Below, one piece after another: positions 56,738 to 64,000 of a stretch of 64,000 bases of DNA (within the stretch, counting starts at the first letter, position 1; every line of letters begins with the position of its first letter). A model generated the notes under the pieces. It was not told the DNA's origin and made no database searches. It saw nothing but the letters and a program-made list of their open reading frames with translations. The DNA lies in NCBI GenBank assembly GCA_965221775.1, contig CBDCSU010000005.1, positions 1,312,001-1,376,000 on the forward strand, given 5' to 3'. The stretch comes from Candidatus Latescibacterota bacterium. Its GTDB lineage: Bacteria > Latescibacterota > UBA2968 > UBA8231. A program made the position numbers and the translations under genes.

Positions 56738-57433
56738 TCAGTTCTTTCGGCTCCGTGGAAGCCTGTGTACAGGCCACAGCGACTCGATCTTCTCATAGTT
56801 ATCCATCAAGAGCCAGTTGGCCCTCCCCGTTTCATCCTTAATCTCCGCTGGAGCCCGTGCCATTTCCTCATACGAAGGGGCAATTACGAAAGCAACGTCC
56901 TGGAGTTGGAAGTCTAGATCATGCGGCACTCGCCACTCTCTCTCGTGCGTATAGTCCACTGCTCTTCTCTTATCCCAGAATCGGTCCTTGTATTCCTGGG
57001 GAGCATATGAAGGACAAAAGGGGGTGACGAAGGAAAACAGGGTGCCATGAAACGCTTGATTGTCTGAACCTGTGTGTTGCTTTTGGTGCTCCATCAATCC
57101 CGGTGTAAGGTAGATAGCAGGTGCGCCCCCTCGGCCAAATAAGTATGCCTTGCTGAAGCCCAACCCAAATCGAGAGTACCGGTTCGCATGATCCAGCAAG
57201 CTCCCCCAGGTACACTCCGTGAAGCACACTGCGGGCTTGTTGGTCCAAGGCATCTTGGTCGCCCGCAGTCTTCTCTCCCGAAGAATGGCTATTAGCCTCT
57301 CACCCGCCGAAAGACCCCGGACTCTGTCCAACTCCAGATCCCGTCCTTCTTCCTTGAATGAGAATGGAGCCGTGCCCTTTGTAAAATGCACAACGAAATC
57401 AGAGAAGTCCGGACGTACAAAGCGATCAACCAT
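56738..57433 (-). CDS. AbiGi/DUF2971-like putative defence protein
   Basis: VHFTK, AVCFTE, YSRFGLGFSK, DYTHEREWR. Low-GC gene. Confidence 0.65.
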   Translation of the reverse strand: MVDRFVRPDFSDFVVHFTKGTAPFSFKEEGRDLELDRVRGLSAGERLIAILRERRLRATKMPWTNKPAVCFTECTWGSLLDHANRYSRFGLGFSKAYLFGRGGAPAIYLTPGLMEHQKQHTGSDNQAFHGTLFSFVTPFCPSYAPQEYKDRFWDKRRAVDYTHEREWRVPHDLDFQLQDVAFVIAPSYEEMARAPAEIKDETGRANWLLMDNYEKIESLWPVHRLPRSRKN

Positions 57434-57556
57434 TGAGCAACCCCTTCATGAAAGATCTCAAGAATACCCGAAGCTCCCGTGCACCGGCTCCTATGTTAGG
57501 AGAAAGAACCTCCTCAGGTTCAGCTGCCCCCACTTACCTTCCCTCCGCGACTCGCC

Positions 57557-60948: not shown

Positions 60949-63900
60949 GGTAGGCCCCTTCCATCCTCATCTCCTGAATCATGGACAGCCTCTTCTCCGC
61001 CTCCACCTCGCCAACCAGGTCGACGAGCTTGCCGAACAGCTCATCGATCCGGCCCTCGACCAACTTGGACAGGCCCTGGGCCGCGCTGCTGTCCCCCAGC
61101 AAACCGCTGCGTTCTAGGGCTGATTCTTCGATCTGCTGCACCGTCGCCTGCAACTCGCGCTCGAATTGGGCGATGGTGCTGTCGTCCCACCTCGCAAGCG
61201 GCTGACCGACGAGCACGGTGGCCAAGGAGTCTACCAGCTTTGCGTCAGACTTGTAATGCACCTGCATGATCTTCAGCATGCTTGCAGTCGTTGTCGCGGT
61301 GCCCATCCTCTCCACGAAGCTCTGCGAAAAGCAGCCCGCCCACTCCCTGGCCACCCGGCGCAGGCCCTTTCGGCCATCGTGATCACCCAATCTGACTGCG
61401 CGTCGAACCGCGGCGCCCGCCTGTTTCACGTAGGTACGGGTGACATCCATCAACTCCTGCCTTGCCGACCTGATTCCCTCAAGCGCATTGCCGTTCGCGC
61501 TTTGCTCGCCCGCAAGGCGAGGTAGGTCGTACAGGATGAGCCGGACGGGATCGCCTTCCTTGCGGATGAGCTCTTGGAGCCTCTGGCCGGCGGGGGTCAA
61601 CTGACGGCTGGTCAGAGCCGCTGCTGGGAGTTGCGCCTTCCAAGCCTCCAGCGCGTCGTGACAGAGCCTGATGAGGTCGGCTTCCGGGACTTCATATTGG
61701 GGGCCGGTCGTGAAGATGTCGTGCAGCTCGCGCAGGTATTCCTCGCGCTCTTCATCCAGCCTCAGCACACTCACGCGGAAACGATCCGGCTCGCGGCACA
61801 GGCTCTCGATGACGGAGGGCAGGATGTCCGACACGTAGATCCCATCCTTCATCAGCGACAGGGCGCTAGGGAAGGCCTTGAGTCCCGCCGCGAGCAGGAT
61901 GGGAAGCAGGCCTCTCCGCACGCCATAGGGCGGCTCCATCAGCGTGTGGAGCAGTGGCCGGGGGTTCTCGGGCATCGCGGTAGGGTTGGTGAGGAAGTCA
62001 CGGATCTTCCGCCACACCAGCTTCAAGCCGGGATCCTCCAACTCCTCCGGGTCTGCGTACCACCATCGGCCGTTGTCCCGCCGGTAGAGCCCGGTGTGAA
62101 GCAGGACACAACGAAACATGGACGAGTCCGGGAAGTTCCCTTCGATGCCCAGGCCCTCCATGCCCGAACGCTCCAAGATGCCTAGGACCAGCTTCTTGCG
62201 TGCGTTCACCACGATGGCCGAAGGCCGGTGGCGGACGATCATCTCGTTGTTGATGCGTGGACAGTTCGCGAAAACCTCCTCCATGATATTGGACAGAGCC
62301 GTTCGCAGACCGCGGGGCGAGTCCGCCCGTTTCAGGGGCTCGCCCTTGTGGAACCATTGGGGGCCCTCGGCGCCGGGCAACACGAGCCGGTCGAGCAACT
62401 GCTGCAGGTGGCCCCTCGCGTCATCCGTCATCTGCTGCAACTCGGGGCCGACGAGGGGGTCGGTCCCGACAAGCTCACCGTCGGTCTGCATCCGTAGCAG
62501 GCACCACACCTCCAAGGCCGCCTCCCGGATGGGCAGCGGTTCTTGCGGCAGGGCTACCACGATCCTGTCGGCGCTCAGGTCGAGCCGGATCGCCAGCTCG
62601 GCCTGGGCAATCTCCTCGTGGGTCTCGGACAGCACGTACAGCACCTCTCCATCGGTGCCGGGATCTAGGCGCCTCAGATACTGGTCCTGTCGGAGGGACT
62701 CGGGAAGGGTGGCCACGTACTCATACCGGCCGGCGAGAAATCTCCTGACGCGGTGCTGGTCGTTGAACTCGACGGGGCGCCAAGCAGGCGGCCTGGCTTC
62801 CCTGCCTAGGAACTCCAGCTCGTCGAAGTGCTCTTCCTGCCTTCGCTTCTCCTCCTCCAGCCGGCCCCGCAGGTCGACGTCCGTGCCGTGCCAGACGGCC
62901 ACTTGATCGCTGTGGCGACGGTGGAGCAAGAGCTTGCGGTCCACGAGTTGCCGGACCGCGGCCGCTTCCTCTCTCCCGCCGTTGTAGCCTCTGACCGCGA
63001 ATCTCAGCAGGCCGTGCCCTGCACGTGAGCGCTGGCCGCTCGTGCCGAGGCTCAACAGGCAGGCAGCCTTCAGGGCCGCGATCTCCGCCTCGCTGGAGAC
63101 CTTGGTCAGGGCGCTCTCCGTTTCCAGCCACTGGCGGTAGGTGCCGCCCACCGATGTATCCGCGCGCATCACCGGGGAGAAGTAGTCGTACAGGTCCGCC
63201 GGCCGGACCGGCGCCGCCATGTCGACGGAGTAGAGAAAGCTGAAGAGGGTGCGCTCGTTCTGAGCCACACGGGCGGCCAAACGGGGCAGCAGGTGCAGGG
63301 CGGCGGGTTCGAGTGGGAAGGCGCCGCGCAGCAACTGCTGAATCTCGGGGAGGGTGGCTTCACCGAACAACCCATGCTCCCGGCTATCTCTGGCCGCCGT
63401 GCGGGCGTCTGCCAACGCCAAGGTGGCCTCGCCTCTCTGGGAAGCCACGACTTCGGCGATGAGCCGGTAGATCTCCTTGCTGTCATCGACGTACTGCAGG
63501 GTCCGGAAGCGGCCCTCGATCTTGGTCCACTCCGAACGGACCGACTGGGTCATGCCCCCCGCGTATAGCAGGAGGCTCTGGTGGAGGAACAGCCCCATGG
63601 TGGCCGGAACCTTCCGGGTCCGGCTTACGAACTCCGCCAGCACCTGGATCTCGGCCAGAGCGGAAGCCCTCCCCTCCCTTAGCAGGGACTCCAGGTGCCG
63701 CCCGAACTCGTCCCACAACAGGACGACCTGATCGCACCCGCTATCGGCCGCCTTCCTGTGCAGGGCGGCCAGCACGTTGGCAAGACCGTCCGGTCCAGCG
63801 GTCTCAAGCCTTTCGATGGACTTGGCTTCCCGGCCGAGCCTCAATCGCTTCATGCTCTGCACCGCCGACTCCCGCAGCGCTCCGGCCACATCCGGGCAGT

Positions 63901-64000
63901 ATCCGTGGAGAGCGATGGCGATGCCGCGCTTTTCCTTGTTCCTGCTTCGCCTGAGCACGGACCGACCCAGCTCCGGGCTGACCGAATCGAGGCGGCCGGC
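60941..64000 (-). CDS. sspC: Large P-loop ATPase, SspC-like (5' end outside the window)
   Basis: More than 1000 aa, frame open to the window edge, Walker B VVLLWDEFGRHLE, FLHQ, EWTKIEGRF, AQNERTLFSFL, PPYGVRRG. Translationally coupled to the SspD-like gene. Confidence 0.68.
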   Translation of the reverse strand, partial: AGRLDSVSPELGRSVLRRSRNKEKRGIAIALHGYCPDVAGALRESAVQSMKRLRLGREAKSIERLETAGPDGLANVLAALHRKAADSGCDQVVLLWDEFGRHLESLLREGRASALAEIQVLAEFVSRTRKVPATMGLFLHQSLLLYAGGMTQSVRSEWTKIEGRFRTLQYVDDSKEIYRLIAEVVASQRGEATLALADARTAARDSREHGLFGEATLPEIQQLLRGAFPLEPAALHLLPRLAARVAQNERTLFSFLYSVDMAAPVRPADLYDYFSPVMRADTSVGGTYRQWLETESALTKVSSEAEIAALKAACLLSLGTSGQRSRAGHGLLRFAVRGYNGGREEAAAVRQLVDRKLLLHRRHSDQVAVWHGTDVDLRGRLEEEKRRQEEHFDELEFLGREARPPAWRPVEFNDQHRVRRFLAGRYEYVATLPESLRQDQYLRRLDPGTDGEVLYVLSETHEEIAQAELAIRLDLSADRIVVALPQEPLPIREAALEVWCLLRMQTDGELVGTDPLVGPELQQMTDDARGHLQQLLDRLVLPGAEGPQWFHKGEPLKRADSPRGLRTALSNIMEEVFANCPRINNEMIVRHRPSAIVVNARKKLVLGILERSGMEGLGIEGNFPDSSMFRCVLLHTGLYRRDNGRWWYADPEELEDPGLKLVWRKIRDFLTNPTAMPENPRPLLHTLMEPPYGVRRGLLPILLAAGLKAFPSALSLMKDGIYVSDILPSVIESLCREPDRFRVSVLRLDEEREEYLRELHDIFTTGPQYEVPEADLIRLCHDALEAWKAQLPAAALTSRQLTPAGQRLQELIRKEGDPVRLILYDLPRLAGEQSANGNALEGIRSARQELMDVTRTYVKQAGAAVRRAVRLGDHDGRKGLRRVAREWAGCFSQSFVERMGTATTTASMLKIMQVHYKSDAKLVDSLATVLVGQPLARWDDSTIAQFERELQATVQQIEESALERSGLLGDSSAAQGLSKLVEGRIDELFGKLVDLVGEVEAEKRLSMIQEMRMEGAYHG

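Follow-up and report, generated by a model that had tools for sequence, protein, structure and literature searches.

A conserved GIY-YIG and DGQHR gene pair behind an SspABCD phosphorothioation operon as a candidate split restriction module

Gene content of the locus

At the right end of the window (the whole 64,000-nucleotide stretch of DNA analysed), five genes lie in 56738-64000 and past the edge, all on the minus strand. Together with two genes just past the right edge, which are numbered on locus L001, these are, starting upstream:

sspA, L001 9168-10355, just past the right window edge, minus strand: cysteine desulfurase (PADLOC SspA PDLC02759, 1.7e-120; Pfam Aminotran_5, 7.7e-62)
sspB, L001 8266-9483, just past the right window edge, minus strand (PADLOC SspB, 2.3e-109; Pfam DUF4007, 1.8e-63)
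sspC, 60941 to window-equivalent 64276, cut by the window edge at 64000, minus strand: AAA+/Orc-like ATPase of the phosphorothioate (PT)-writing complex, full ORF 1111 aa
sspD, 60133-60948, minus strand: PP-loop/PAPS-reductase-family sulfur-insertion enzyme, overlapping sspC by 8 bp
58792-60054, minus strand: 420-aa three-domain protein, HEPN-like and GIY-YIG, 78 bp downstream of sspD
57557-58789, minus strand: 410-aa DGQHR-domain protein of ParB/Srx fold and the DndB superfamily, exactly 2 bp after the stop of the GIY-YIG gene
56738-57433, minus strand: 231-aa AbiGi-family protein, after a 123-bp gap behind the DGQHR gene

SspA, SspB, SspC and SspD each have a PADLOC model match (1e-90 to 1e-153). 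SspC matches PDLC02779 at 8.5e-153 over profile positions 3-1050 of 1054 and carries a Walker A motif, APYGSGKS, and a Walker-B-like motif, VVLLWDEF. SspD matches PDLC02782 (1.3e-90) and Pfam PAPS_reduct (1.6e-13), with the PP-loop SGGKDS at residue 23. With PP-loop and Walker A both intact, the locus is, as read from its genes, a complete SspABCD writer of single-strand DNA phosphorothioation. The GC content is 0.60-0.67 for the ssp genes and 0.48-0.56 for the three genes downstream, compared with 0.70 for the genome. The composition of the three low-GC genes departs from that of the ssp genes, so the cassette appears to be a recent addition to the operon and does not have to be adapted to it. 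A first-pass annotation had described five co-oriented genes, an SspC/SspD-like ATPase and PAPS-reductase pair that overlaps, three genes of lower GC and a 2-bp spacing between the GIY-YIG and DGQHR genes, had predicted a DUF4007 sspB just past the right edge and had proposed looking there for a cysteine desulfurase; all of this was borne out.

The GIY-YIG and DGQHR proteins

The 420-aa protein consists of an HEPN-like helical region (residues 1-185), a beta-rich middle (187-268) and a GIY-YIG nuclease domain (~300-415), its structure being an AF2 model with a pLDDT of 86.6. The nuclease assignment made in the first-pass annotation stands: VIA fold matches of the C-terminal domain include T4 EndoII (Z 10.1), UvrC (Z 8.6) and I-TevI (Z 8.2), and Foldseek of the model returned UvrC with probability 1.0 and TMt 0.70. 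Also among the fold matches is 9u75 (Z 5.5), the structure of PD-T4-3, a GIY-YIG restriction enzyme specific for 5hmC. The protein itself has no Pfam match; its homologues beside other DGQHR genes are usually only 150-210 aa long, and one of these small partners passes the Pfam GIY-YIG cut-off with 26.2 bits. Residues 281-414 align to the small-partner family by hhalign with 98.5% probability (E 3.2e-15), and profile matches to PDB entries include UvrC (6.5e-4) and T4 EndoII (3.3e-3). Within the 420-aa family Y325, R353 and N410 are invariant and Y343 and E398 are at least 90% conserved; the long and short families alike show little or no variation at the GIY, YIG, Arg, Glu and Asn positions. 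The UvrC N-terminal domain, T4 EndoII, I-TevI and R.Eco29kI share this fold and these catalytic-type residues, but none of them has a ParB-like partner or a link to PT. The GIY-YIG partners make up a group of their own, with 716 representative clusters at E <= 1e-10.

The N-terminal region carries an HEPN Rx4-6H motif, R150-N-K-C-A-H155-G, in which every residue but K is invariant across 32 sequences. Its best VIA matches are mostly HEPN (Roquin HEPN region Z 6.9, 1wwp 6.6, the AMPylated HEPN toxin 8xdj 6.5, HI0074 6.5, SO_3166 6.0, LsoA 5.6 and RnlA 5.0), all at Z 5.0-6.9 and hence within the range below 8 that helical bundles commonly reach by chance. The HEPN part proposed earlier stands as a helical bundle with an invariant Rx4H motif, but it is an addition specific to one small clade (9 loci seen) and not a general feature of the pair. 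All 8 long-form, HEPN-fused loci with visible context contain ssp genes (L001, L002, L004-L007, L099, L100).

The 410-aa protein scores 93 bits against TIGR03187 (cut-off 58.85) and 101.9 bits against Pfam DndB, PF14072 (cut-off 29.1), and D116-G-Q-H-R120 is invariant in 86 relatives. It is predicted to be an NTPase switch or DNA reader. Assignment to the DndB equivalog TIGR03233 was ruled out, with 72 bits against a cut-off of 328, and the match to TIGR04172 ("DNA phosphorothioation-associated DGQHR protein 1") did not reach E 0.01. DndB and the TIGR04172 proteins share with it the DGQHR domain of TIGR03187 and PF14072, and both are PT-linked; the family of the window protein differs in having an obligate GIY-YIG partner and in coexisting with true DndB.

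Conservation and genomic context of the pair

We collected 80 metagenome loci chosen solely by DGQHR similarity; the two peptide patterns used for the scan came from this DGQHR clade, which biases the sample towards its relatives. A GIY-YIG-family ORF lies directly upstream of the DGQHR gene in 64 of the 67 loci with at least 700 bp of upstream DNA, and 72 of 75 ORFs in this position group with the 420-aa protein in BLAST clustering. The median gap between the GIY-YIG stop and the DGQHR start is 2 bp (n=85). Where the upstream DNA reaches 2 kb or more (51 loci), sspD is present in 45, on the same strand in 42, at a median distance of 34 bp from sspD stop to GIY-YIG start (n=53); the other loci contain only sspB/C (2), only a dndC-like gene (1) or no PT gene in the available DNA (3). 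After de-replication at 90% identity sspD is present in 37 of 43 clusters, and its adjacency to the pair spans the whole DGQHR tree and several phyla.

The association was also seen in genomes. Among 168 genomes of the window's phylum the DGQHR family occurs in 22 and sspD in 44, with both within 6 kb in 12; for a second phylum (401 genomes) the numbers are 5 and 8, with both within 8 kb in 4. Members of the DGQHR family also occur outside PT loci: 10 of the 22 DGQHR genomes in the window's phylum have no sspD within 6 kb, among them three with solo DGQHR genes beside Cas6, with TGT/DpdA-like, HNH or CBASS neighbours (G092, G084, G082), and two that are dnd-linked (G143, G086). Contrary to the first-pass annotation, which assigned DGQHR/DndB proteins to Dnd-type loci, this family is found mostly in Ssp loci. 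Where the pair does occur with dnd, as on Rhizobium sp. NXC14 plasmid pRspNXC14a, it adjoins annotated dndB-dndC-dndD-dndE, and four other loci (L090, L027, L032, L073) likewise place it beside clusters that retain their own DndB; because of this, the DGQHR partner is not a DndB substitute. On Rhizobium pTiK1_93 the gene next after the pair is SspF (1.2e-66); a hypothetical and an FtsK-like gene come behind it, and then a convergent sspD (1.1e-132). A PT-associated methyltransferase, TIGR04096, is near the pair in 17 loci; this family, the PT writers (ssp, dnd) and SspFGH are its only recurrent neighbours.

Altogether, the GIY-YIG and DGQHR genes are a conserved two-gene pair with a strong cross-phylum association with ssp and sometimes with dnd. 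PADLOC v2, Pfam and NCBIfam hold no model for this pair, and we found no description of it in the literature.

The position behind sspD and known effectors

No gene in the locus has a PADLOC match to SspE, SspF, SspG or SspH. On the whole genome, five SspE models matched nothing beyond short segments of generic DUF262 proteins, none closer than 100 kb, the one SspF model run (PDLC02798) matched nothing, and the one SspH model run (PDLC02804) matched only an FtsK-like gene on another contig. Canonical sspE and sspFGH are absent from the locus by PADLOC and, by the models run, from the genome. The window's candidate effector was also considered as an SspE itself and rejected, as its motif is DGQHR, its nuclease is a separate GIY-YIG gene and there is no SspE match. 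Same-genus genomes carry the island at this site too, there with HNH nucleases following sspD. The slot after sspD is swappable, and the earlier idea of an effector slot holds. According to PMC8092258, one Ssp writer can serve different effector modules, and neither SspE nor SspFGH is present in 85% of 2,678 sspBCD loci.

The position and make-up of the pair resemble those of SspE. Both systems have the same SspA-D writer with the effector gene right after sspD, and in both a nuclease goes together with a ParB/Srx-fold NTPase-type module. SspABCD-SspE is reportedly a PT-sensing defence system (PMC9646914; PMC8092258). SspE, however, is one polypeptide, DUF262 (DGQQR) plus DUF1524 HNH, whereas the window has two genes, DGQHR/DndB-family and GIY-YIG, with the HEPN-like domain as an extra in its clade. 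DndI of the IscS-DndBCDE-DndI system (PMC11662687) is likewise a PT-reading ParB-like NTPase with a nuclease, and it adjoins the larger restriction module dndFGH yet can work alone with the writer. The placement of the pair beside SspFGH (pTiK1_93) and dndBCDE (pRspNXC14a) recalls that of dndI beside dndFGH in that paper. DndI differs in being a fused DUF262-HNH protein with a DGQQR motif, and its PT-stimulated ATPase and nicking activities are experimentally demonstrated. SspFGH (PMC8092258) is an alternative restriction partner for the same writer, but it consists of three large proteins, among them an FtsK-like translocase and one with a Walker A motif, that show no homology to the pair.

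Discussion

The pair is probably a new kind of partner of Ssp operons that attacks foreign DNA. Its setting beside SspF on pTiK1_93 suggests by analogy that it behaves like known PT-linked effectors. From the sequence evidence we lean modestly towards the reading that the SspABCD writer is here joined to a two-gene PT-coupled restriction module of GIY-YIG and DGQHR proteins, a putative split analogue of SspE and DndI.

Alternatively, the pair could be an accessory or regulator of PT writing, with the DGQHR protein adjusting how often PT is placed or how strongly ssp is transcribed, in the way DndB acts on dnd, and the GIY-YIG protein supplying or repairing nicks during sulfur insertion. Membership of the Pfam DndB and TIGR03187 families and the position right after sspD in the same operon orientation are consistent with this, and canonical DndB, its nearest named relative, regulates transcription instead of sensing for restriction according to PMC4507180; both that paper and PMC10853773 present DndB as an ATP-modulated negative regulator of PT. 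We nevertheless regard this role as unlikely. Bona fide DndB coexists with the pair in dnd clusters, where the role is already filled, and the pair is not near sspD in 32 of 44 sspD genomes of one phylum and 4 of 8 of another; since most ssp operons are without the pair, PT writing does not need it. Furthermore, plain HNH nucleases fill the same slot in relatives, the nuclease catalytic positions are conserved, and the writer already has a nickase in SspB, going by the annotation used in PMC12914056.

It is improbable that the pair is instead a self-contained defence, a split Type IV-like enzyme against modified phage DNA comparable to GmrSD or BrxU, brought near ssp by defence islands or mobile segments. 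The pair or the DGQHR gene does occur without PT genes (L024, L040, L081, L086-L088), the cassette differs from the ssp genes in GC, ParB-like DUF262 proteins sense modified DNA in GmrSD (PMC12065111), and the fold matches include the 5hmC-specific GIY-YIG enzyme PD-T4-3. However, the same-strand position behind sspD in 42 of 51 loci, at a median of 34 bp, is a much closer arrangement than sharing an island would give, and the recurrent neighbours described above are all PT-related.

That the three downstream genes act as a trio, with the AbiGi-like protein as an abortive-infection backup or an antitoxin to the HEPN domain, is very improbable: the genes are co-oriented and share low GC, Pfam labels AbiGi the antitoxin of an abortive-infection pair and HEPN domains are often toxins (fold matches 8xdj, 5yep), but the AbiGi-like gene is missing from the other 8 long-form loci and from all short-form loci scanned. 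We identified the 231-aa protein through Pfam PF10899 (25.4 bits, cut-off 22.4; E 1.7e-5) and PADLOC AbiGi (1.7e-5). No homologue was found in the other DGQHR loci scanned (L002-L082 and later genome loci), and none appears in the annotation, the only source used, of L102, L103 and L105. Elsewhere there are 265 homologues with up to 68% identity, but no contig that carries one agrees in length with a contig of the pair. For the 420-aa protein, by comparison, 21 of 34 homologues are on contigs of the same length as one with a close DGQHR homologue. One AbiGi-like relative is on an IMG/VR viral contig. PADLOC and Pfam show no AbiGii partner beside the gene, whose neighbours are the DGQHR gene and an amidohydrolase. 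In the 123-bp gap in front of it there is a weak hairpin resembling a terminator (57521-57506), although hairpins were no more numerous than expected by chance. Of the three-gene cassette proposed in the first-pass annotation, which named its recurrence beside sspBCD as a check, the GIY-YIG/DGQHR pair does recur in unrelated organisms and the AbiGi-like gene does not; the latter is probably a separate passenger of the island, outside the conserved module.

For the favoured reading, a two-gene PT-coupled restriction module, SspABCD would put PT marks on host DNA and the DGQHR protein would act as a nucleotide-dependent DNA-binding switch that reads PT status, the job that falls to the DUF262 domain in SspE and in DndI. 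This switch would license or restrain the GIY-YIG partner, which would nick or cut improperly marked DNA; PT could either activate the nuclease, as for SspE, or shield DNA from it, as for DndI and SspFGH. The two genes may be translationally coupled, and the HEPN-like domain gained at the N-terminus in this clade probably either cleaves RNA, in the manner of abortive infection, or serves regulatory dimerisation. What we observe directly is the gene content, the domain folds, the invariance of catalytic-type residues, the operon-like spacing and the ssp association across phyla; that the pair hydrolyses NTP, senses PT, forms a complex, acts as a nuclease and protects against phage is inferred.

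More tentatively, and with slightly more doubt than belief, we suggest that the pair may be a widespread third class of PT-coupled restriction effector serving both Ssp and Dnd writers, represented here by a PT-gated form fused to an HEPN RNase that would cut both DNA and RNA. If this is true, the third effector class would come after SspE/DndI and SspFGH/DndFGH.

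A complete phosphorothioation writer precedes three lower-GC genes

The first-pass annotation had described five co-oriented genes and predicted an sspB gene just past the right edge of the window, with a cysteine desulfurase to be looked for there as well. We find all five genes on the minus strand:

60941 to beyond the window edge, minus: sspC, 1111 aa in full as completed from the DNA past the edge (L001, the window locus extended to the right)
60133-60948, minus: sspD, overlapping sspC by 8 bp
58792-60054, minus: gene for the 420-aa HEPN-like/GIY-YIG protein, next in transcription order after sspD
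57557-58789, minus: gene for the 410-aa DGQHR protein, starting 2 bp past the stop of the 420-aa gene
56738-57433, minus: gene for the 231-aa AbiGi-like protein, separated from the 410-aa gene by a 123-bp gap

Beyond the edge, sspA (cysteine desulfurase) and sspB (DUF4007) precede sspC in the same orientation. All four proteins, SspA, B, C and D, match their PADLOC models (1e-90 to 1e-153); SspD has the PP-loop motif SGGKDS and SspC a Walker A motif. With the writer proteins identified and sspB and sspA found past the edge, both the earlier observation and the sspB prediction are therefore confirmed. The ssp genes have a GC content of 0.60-0.67 and the three genes downstream 0.48-0.56, in a genome of 70% GC.

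Upstream of sspA, at L001 11267-13095 (window-equivalent 67267-69095), are two further co-oriented genes of 448 and 166 aa (GC 0.56-0.59) with no match in Pfam, PADLOC or NCBIfam. Their nucleotide identity to the same-genus genome G165 is 94%, above that of the ssp genes. L001 also has a paralogous short ORF at 10829-11200, and in another locus, L099, a weak 166-aa-like ORF occurs near ssp. These two genes may be another pair carried by the island. Just outside the island, at 54163-55767 on the minus strand, an ORF of 534 aa resembles leishmanolysin (Peptidase_M8, 9.3e-9).

The GIY-YIG and DGQHR genes form a conserved pair

A metagenome scan seeded with DGQHR patterns alone yielded 80 loci, in which we called ORFs and searched them with profiles from our own alignments and with the window's Ssp proteins. 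The corresponding scans with the 420-aa family gave no metagenome loci and one locus on genome contigs. We found that 72 of the 75 ORFs directly upstream of a DGQHR gene fall in one BLAST cluster that includes the window's 420-aa protein. Members of this cluster are mostly 150-210 aa long, and the match is confined to the C-terminal GIY-YIG part of the 420-aa protein (hhalign of the small partners against it: 98.5% probability, E 3.2e-15). Where 700 bp or more of upstream sequence is available (67 loci), a gene of this cluster is present in 64, and the median distance from the GIY-YIG stop to the DGQHR start is 2 bp (n=85). One small partner scores above the Pfam GIY-YIG cut-off, the partner profile matches UvrC (6.5e-4) and T4 EndoII (3.3e-3) in the PDB, and the invariant residues are the GIY-YIG catalytic set. 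By these sequence criteria, the small partners are predicted GIY-YIG nucleases. The family comprises 716 representative clusters at E <= 1e-10 among 1.84 billion representatives.

The pair is tied to PT writers across metagenomes, genomes and plasmids

Linkage to writers of DNA phosphorothioation (PT) was counted in the 51 metagenome loci whose upstream sequence spans 2 kb or more. We observe sspD in 45 of these, on the same strand in 42; the others carry sspB/C only (2), a dndC-like gene only (1) or none of these genes (3). After de-replication at 90% identity, sspD is present in 37 of 43 clusters. The median distance from the sspD stop to the GIY-YIG start is 34 bp (n=53).

Among 168 species genomes of the window's phylum, 22 carry the DGQHR family and 44 carry sspD, and the two lie within 6 kb of each other in 12. 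Six of these 12 are pair-carrying regions that we fetched (L091-L095, L097), with the small GIY-YIG gene between sspD and DGQHR. G147 (L096) has a different DGQHR paralogue, one with no GIY-YIG gene, at a distance of a few kb from sspD, and judging by position G134 and G135 probably represent the same situation. Ten DGQHR genomes of the phylum have no sspD nearby. The contexts described for this group cover G143, G086, G092, G084 and G082, leaving out G073, G133, G071, G037 and G119; the DGQHR genes of G143 and G086 are dnd-linked, and the solo genes of G092, G084 and G082 adjoin Cas6, with other neighbours being TGT/DpdA-like, HNH or CBASS genes. In G119, DGQHR and sspD are on separate contigs. 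In a second phylum, 401 sampled genomes gave 5 with DGQHR and 8 with sspD, within 8 kb of each other in 4.

Three named, cultured strains carry the pair on plasmids:

Roseobacter litoralis B14, pROLI83: cysteine desulfurase, DUF4007, ATP-binding protein, PAPS reductase, a 176-aa 'hypothetical protein' and a 'DGQHR domain-containing protein'
Rhizobium sp. NXC14, pRspNXC14a: an annotated dndB-dndC-dndD-dndE-desulfurase cluster, immediately preceded by the pair and a methyltransferase
Rhizobium sp. K1/93, pTiK1_93 (L102 8480-19210): the pair directly upstream of, and co-oriented with, SspF (1.2e-66), a hypothetical gene and a 1809-aa 'FtsK'

The 176-aa protein of pROLI83 matches the profile of the small GIY-YIG partner family at 1.7e-20, and on pTiK1_93 a convergent sspD (1.1e-132) lies beyond the FtsK-like gene. 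The GIY-YIG and DGQHR genes constitute a two-gene unit that is widespread and linked to PT writers, a finding both stronger and broader than the first-pass annotation supposed.

A TIGR04096 'DNA phosphorothioation-associated putative methyltransferase' (up to 1.5e-174) adjoins the pair in 17 loci in varying orientation (for example L002 12546-14009, L068 1847-3337 and L009 11752-13785), with none in the window. On two replicons that are unrelated to each other, at L103 (pROLI83) 10226-14650 and L098 (G138) 5431-9844, the ssp operon faces a convergent trio of PLD-family nuclease, GHKL-type ATPase (MzaB-like) and DEAD/ResIII helicase (PbeA-like), which may be another recurring Ssp neighbour. We also observed a clade of solo DGQHR genes beside Cas6 that have no GIY-YIG partner (L086 8266-10748, L087 9042-11466, L088 8934-11458) and whose upstream neighbours differ (TGT/DpdA-like, HNH_4, or CBASS in the form of a cyclase plus a SAVED-HNH effector). 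Some ssp loci are followed, within a few kb, by a second DGQHR paralogue that likewise has no GIY-YIG partner (L006 11681-13138, L100 14450-15985, L096 11716-13071), flanked in L096 by a PbeC/DndD-like ATPase fragment, an IS and an SNF2 helicase (ZorD/DpdE-like).

The long form occupies a swappable nuclease slot

The long form of the pair, in which the GIY-YIG protein has a HEPN-like N-terminal extension, was found in nine loci (L001-L007, L099, L100), and ssp genes are present in all eight with visible context. In the DGQHR tree, which leaves out L099 and L100, the partners from six long-form loci form one clade (SH-aLRT 100) with that of L007 close by.

The nine other genomes of the same genus all lack the DGQHR gene, and four of them contain sspD. 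In G165 and G167 the island occupies the same chromosomal site, flanked by the same amidohydrolase and sulfatase at ~90% nucleotide identity, and their sspA, sspB and sspD share 85-90% identity with those of the window. The DNA between the flank and sspD differs from that of the window. The slot after sspD holds HNH proteins: HNH_4 (474 aa) in G165, HNH_2 (439 aa, its N-terminal part Type IV-like) in G167, and HNH_2 (301 aa) in G103, a genome of the same family. This makes the position after sspD a swappable nuclease slot, and in the window's genome it is filled by the lower-GC cassette.

Both G165 and G167 have lost sspC, with an IS (DDE_3 transposase) at its place in G167. At these sspC-less sites (L083 8912-10199 in G167, L084 10222-10244 in G165) the HNH nuclease after sspD is kept, and the two loci have the appearance of PT writers in decay whose nuclease has survived.

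Domains of the paired proteins

Neither Pfam nor PADLOC gives a match for the 420-aa protein, which belongs to a rare family of 35 proteins including itself, none of them named, in a word-seeded search. In the family alignment the RNxCAHG (Rx4H) motif is invariant and the GIY, YIG, Arg, Glu and Asn positions are conserved. In an AlphaFold2 model (pLDDT 86.6), residues 1-185 form a helical domain and residues 187-268 a beta-rich one, and a C-terminal domain follows. This C-terminal domain matches T4 EndoII (Z 10.1, rmsd 2.5, 103 aligned), UvrC GIY-YIG (Z 8.6) and I-TevI (Z 8.2), in agreement with a Foldseek search of the whole model, in which the GIY-YIG domain was the sole part matched. For the helical domain, HEPN proteins make up most of the top fold matches (the Roquin HEPN region, 1wwp, the AMPylated HEPN toxin 8xdj, HI0074, SO_3166, LsoA and RnlA), at Z of just 5.0-6.9, a level that is not decisive for a helical bundle. 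Together with the invariant Rx4H motif, these matches to the model suggest that the domain is probably HEPN. Sequence searches of the PDB gave no useful match for protein P0004 or the AbiGi-like protein.

The 410-aa protein is a DGQHR-domain protein (TIGR03187, 93 bits; Pfam DndB, 101.9 bits). Its relatives are far more numerous and better conserved than those of the 420-aa protein. Its score against the DndB equivalog is 72 bits, far under the cut-off of 328, and PADLOC and NCBIfam models gave no SspE, DpdB or TIGR04172 match, so membership in DpdB or TIGR04172 was rejected. The DGQHR profile had no relevant match among PDB sequences at E <= 1. Binding of ATP and GTP has been reported for a DndB-like protein (bioRxiv 10.1101/2025.10.10.680097). 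Two observations speak against a DndB-like regulator role for the pair: true DndB coexists with it, and most ssp operons do not have it.

The AbiGi-like gene is treated as a separate passenger

The 231-aa protein passes the Pfam AbiGi threshold (25.4 bits against 22.4). It has 265 homologues with identity up to 68%, one of them on an IMG/VR viral contig. Contigs of equal size, matched by eye, served as an indirect stand-in for co-location: none of the AbiGi-like homologues is on a contig equal in size to those of the pair's homologues, and 21 of 34 non-self homologues of the 420-aa protein are on contigs equal in size to that of a close DGQHR homologue. The 123-bp gap before the gene holds a weak terminator-like hairpin, at a hairpin frequency not above chance.

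We found no AbiGi-like ORF in any other locus scanned, and we treat the gene as a separate passenger. The initial interpretation survives in part: the proposed three-gene cassette is not supported, and neither is an abortive-infection backup through the AbiGi-like protein.

Comparison with known PT effectors

Besides SspE and DndI, PT-coupled effectors include the large SspFGH and DndFGH complexes. PADLOC found no SspE, DndI, SspFGH or DndFGH at the locus, and a search of the whole genome with five SspE models, one SspF and one SspH model gave generic DUF262 and FtsK matches only. Two generic DUF262 (GmrSD_N) proteins of ~585 aa are encoded on the window's contig at 416063-416779 and 1265706-1266413, at least 100 kb from the ssp locus.

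SspE and DndI are described as fusions of DUF262 (DGQQR) and a DUF1524 HNH domain with PT-stimulated NTPase and nicking activity (PMC11662687, PMC8092258). The pair resembles a split version of these, with a predicted ParB/Srx-fold NTPase-type protein and a nuclease; it differs in that its ParB subfamily is DGQHR and its nuclease fold GIY-YIG. The function predicted for the pair draws on genomic association, folds and conserved residues.

Passages of a Dnd reappraisal list URI/GIY-YIG and HEPN nucleases among Dnd neighbours, and those passages do not describe the pair or Ssp loci (PMC10853773). HEPN fusions of ParB-like COG1479 proteins have been noted (PMC3632139). Our literature search, with supplementary tables and subscription papers outside its scope, found no description of an Ssp-linked GIY-YIG/DGQHR module, and papers using the term DGQHR yielded nothing on Ssp. 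The pair is without a name in PADLOC v2, Pfam and NCBIfam; in RefSeq the nuclease appears as 'hypothetical protein', and the putative sensor goes under 'DndB' or 'DGQHR domain-containing protein'.

According to PMC8092258, ~85% of 2,678 sspBCD loci have neither SspE nor SspFGH and would be 'orphan' PT writers that lack a recognised effector. A compact two-gene module after sspD in a sizeable share of operons (12/44 and 4/8 of sspD genomes in the two phyla) would partly fill this gap, and would supply a model that is now missing from defence-finder tools. Roseobacter litoralis B14 with plasmid pROLI83 offers a culturable carrier for tests. With the putative sensor and the nuclease on separate proteins, the module would lend itself well to dissecting the readout of PT status.
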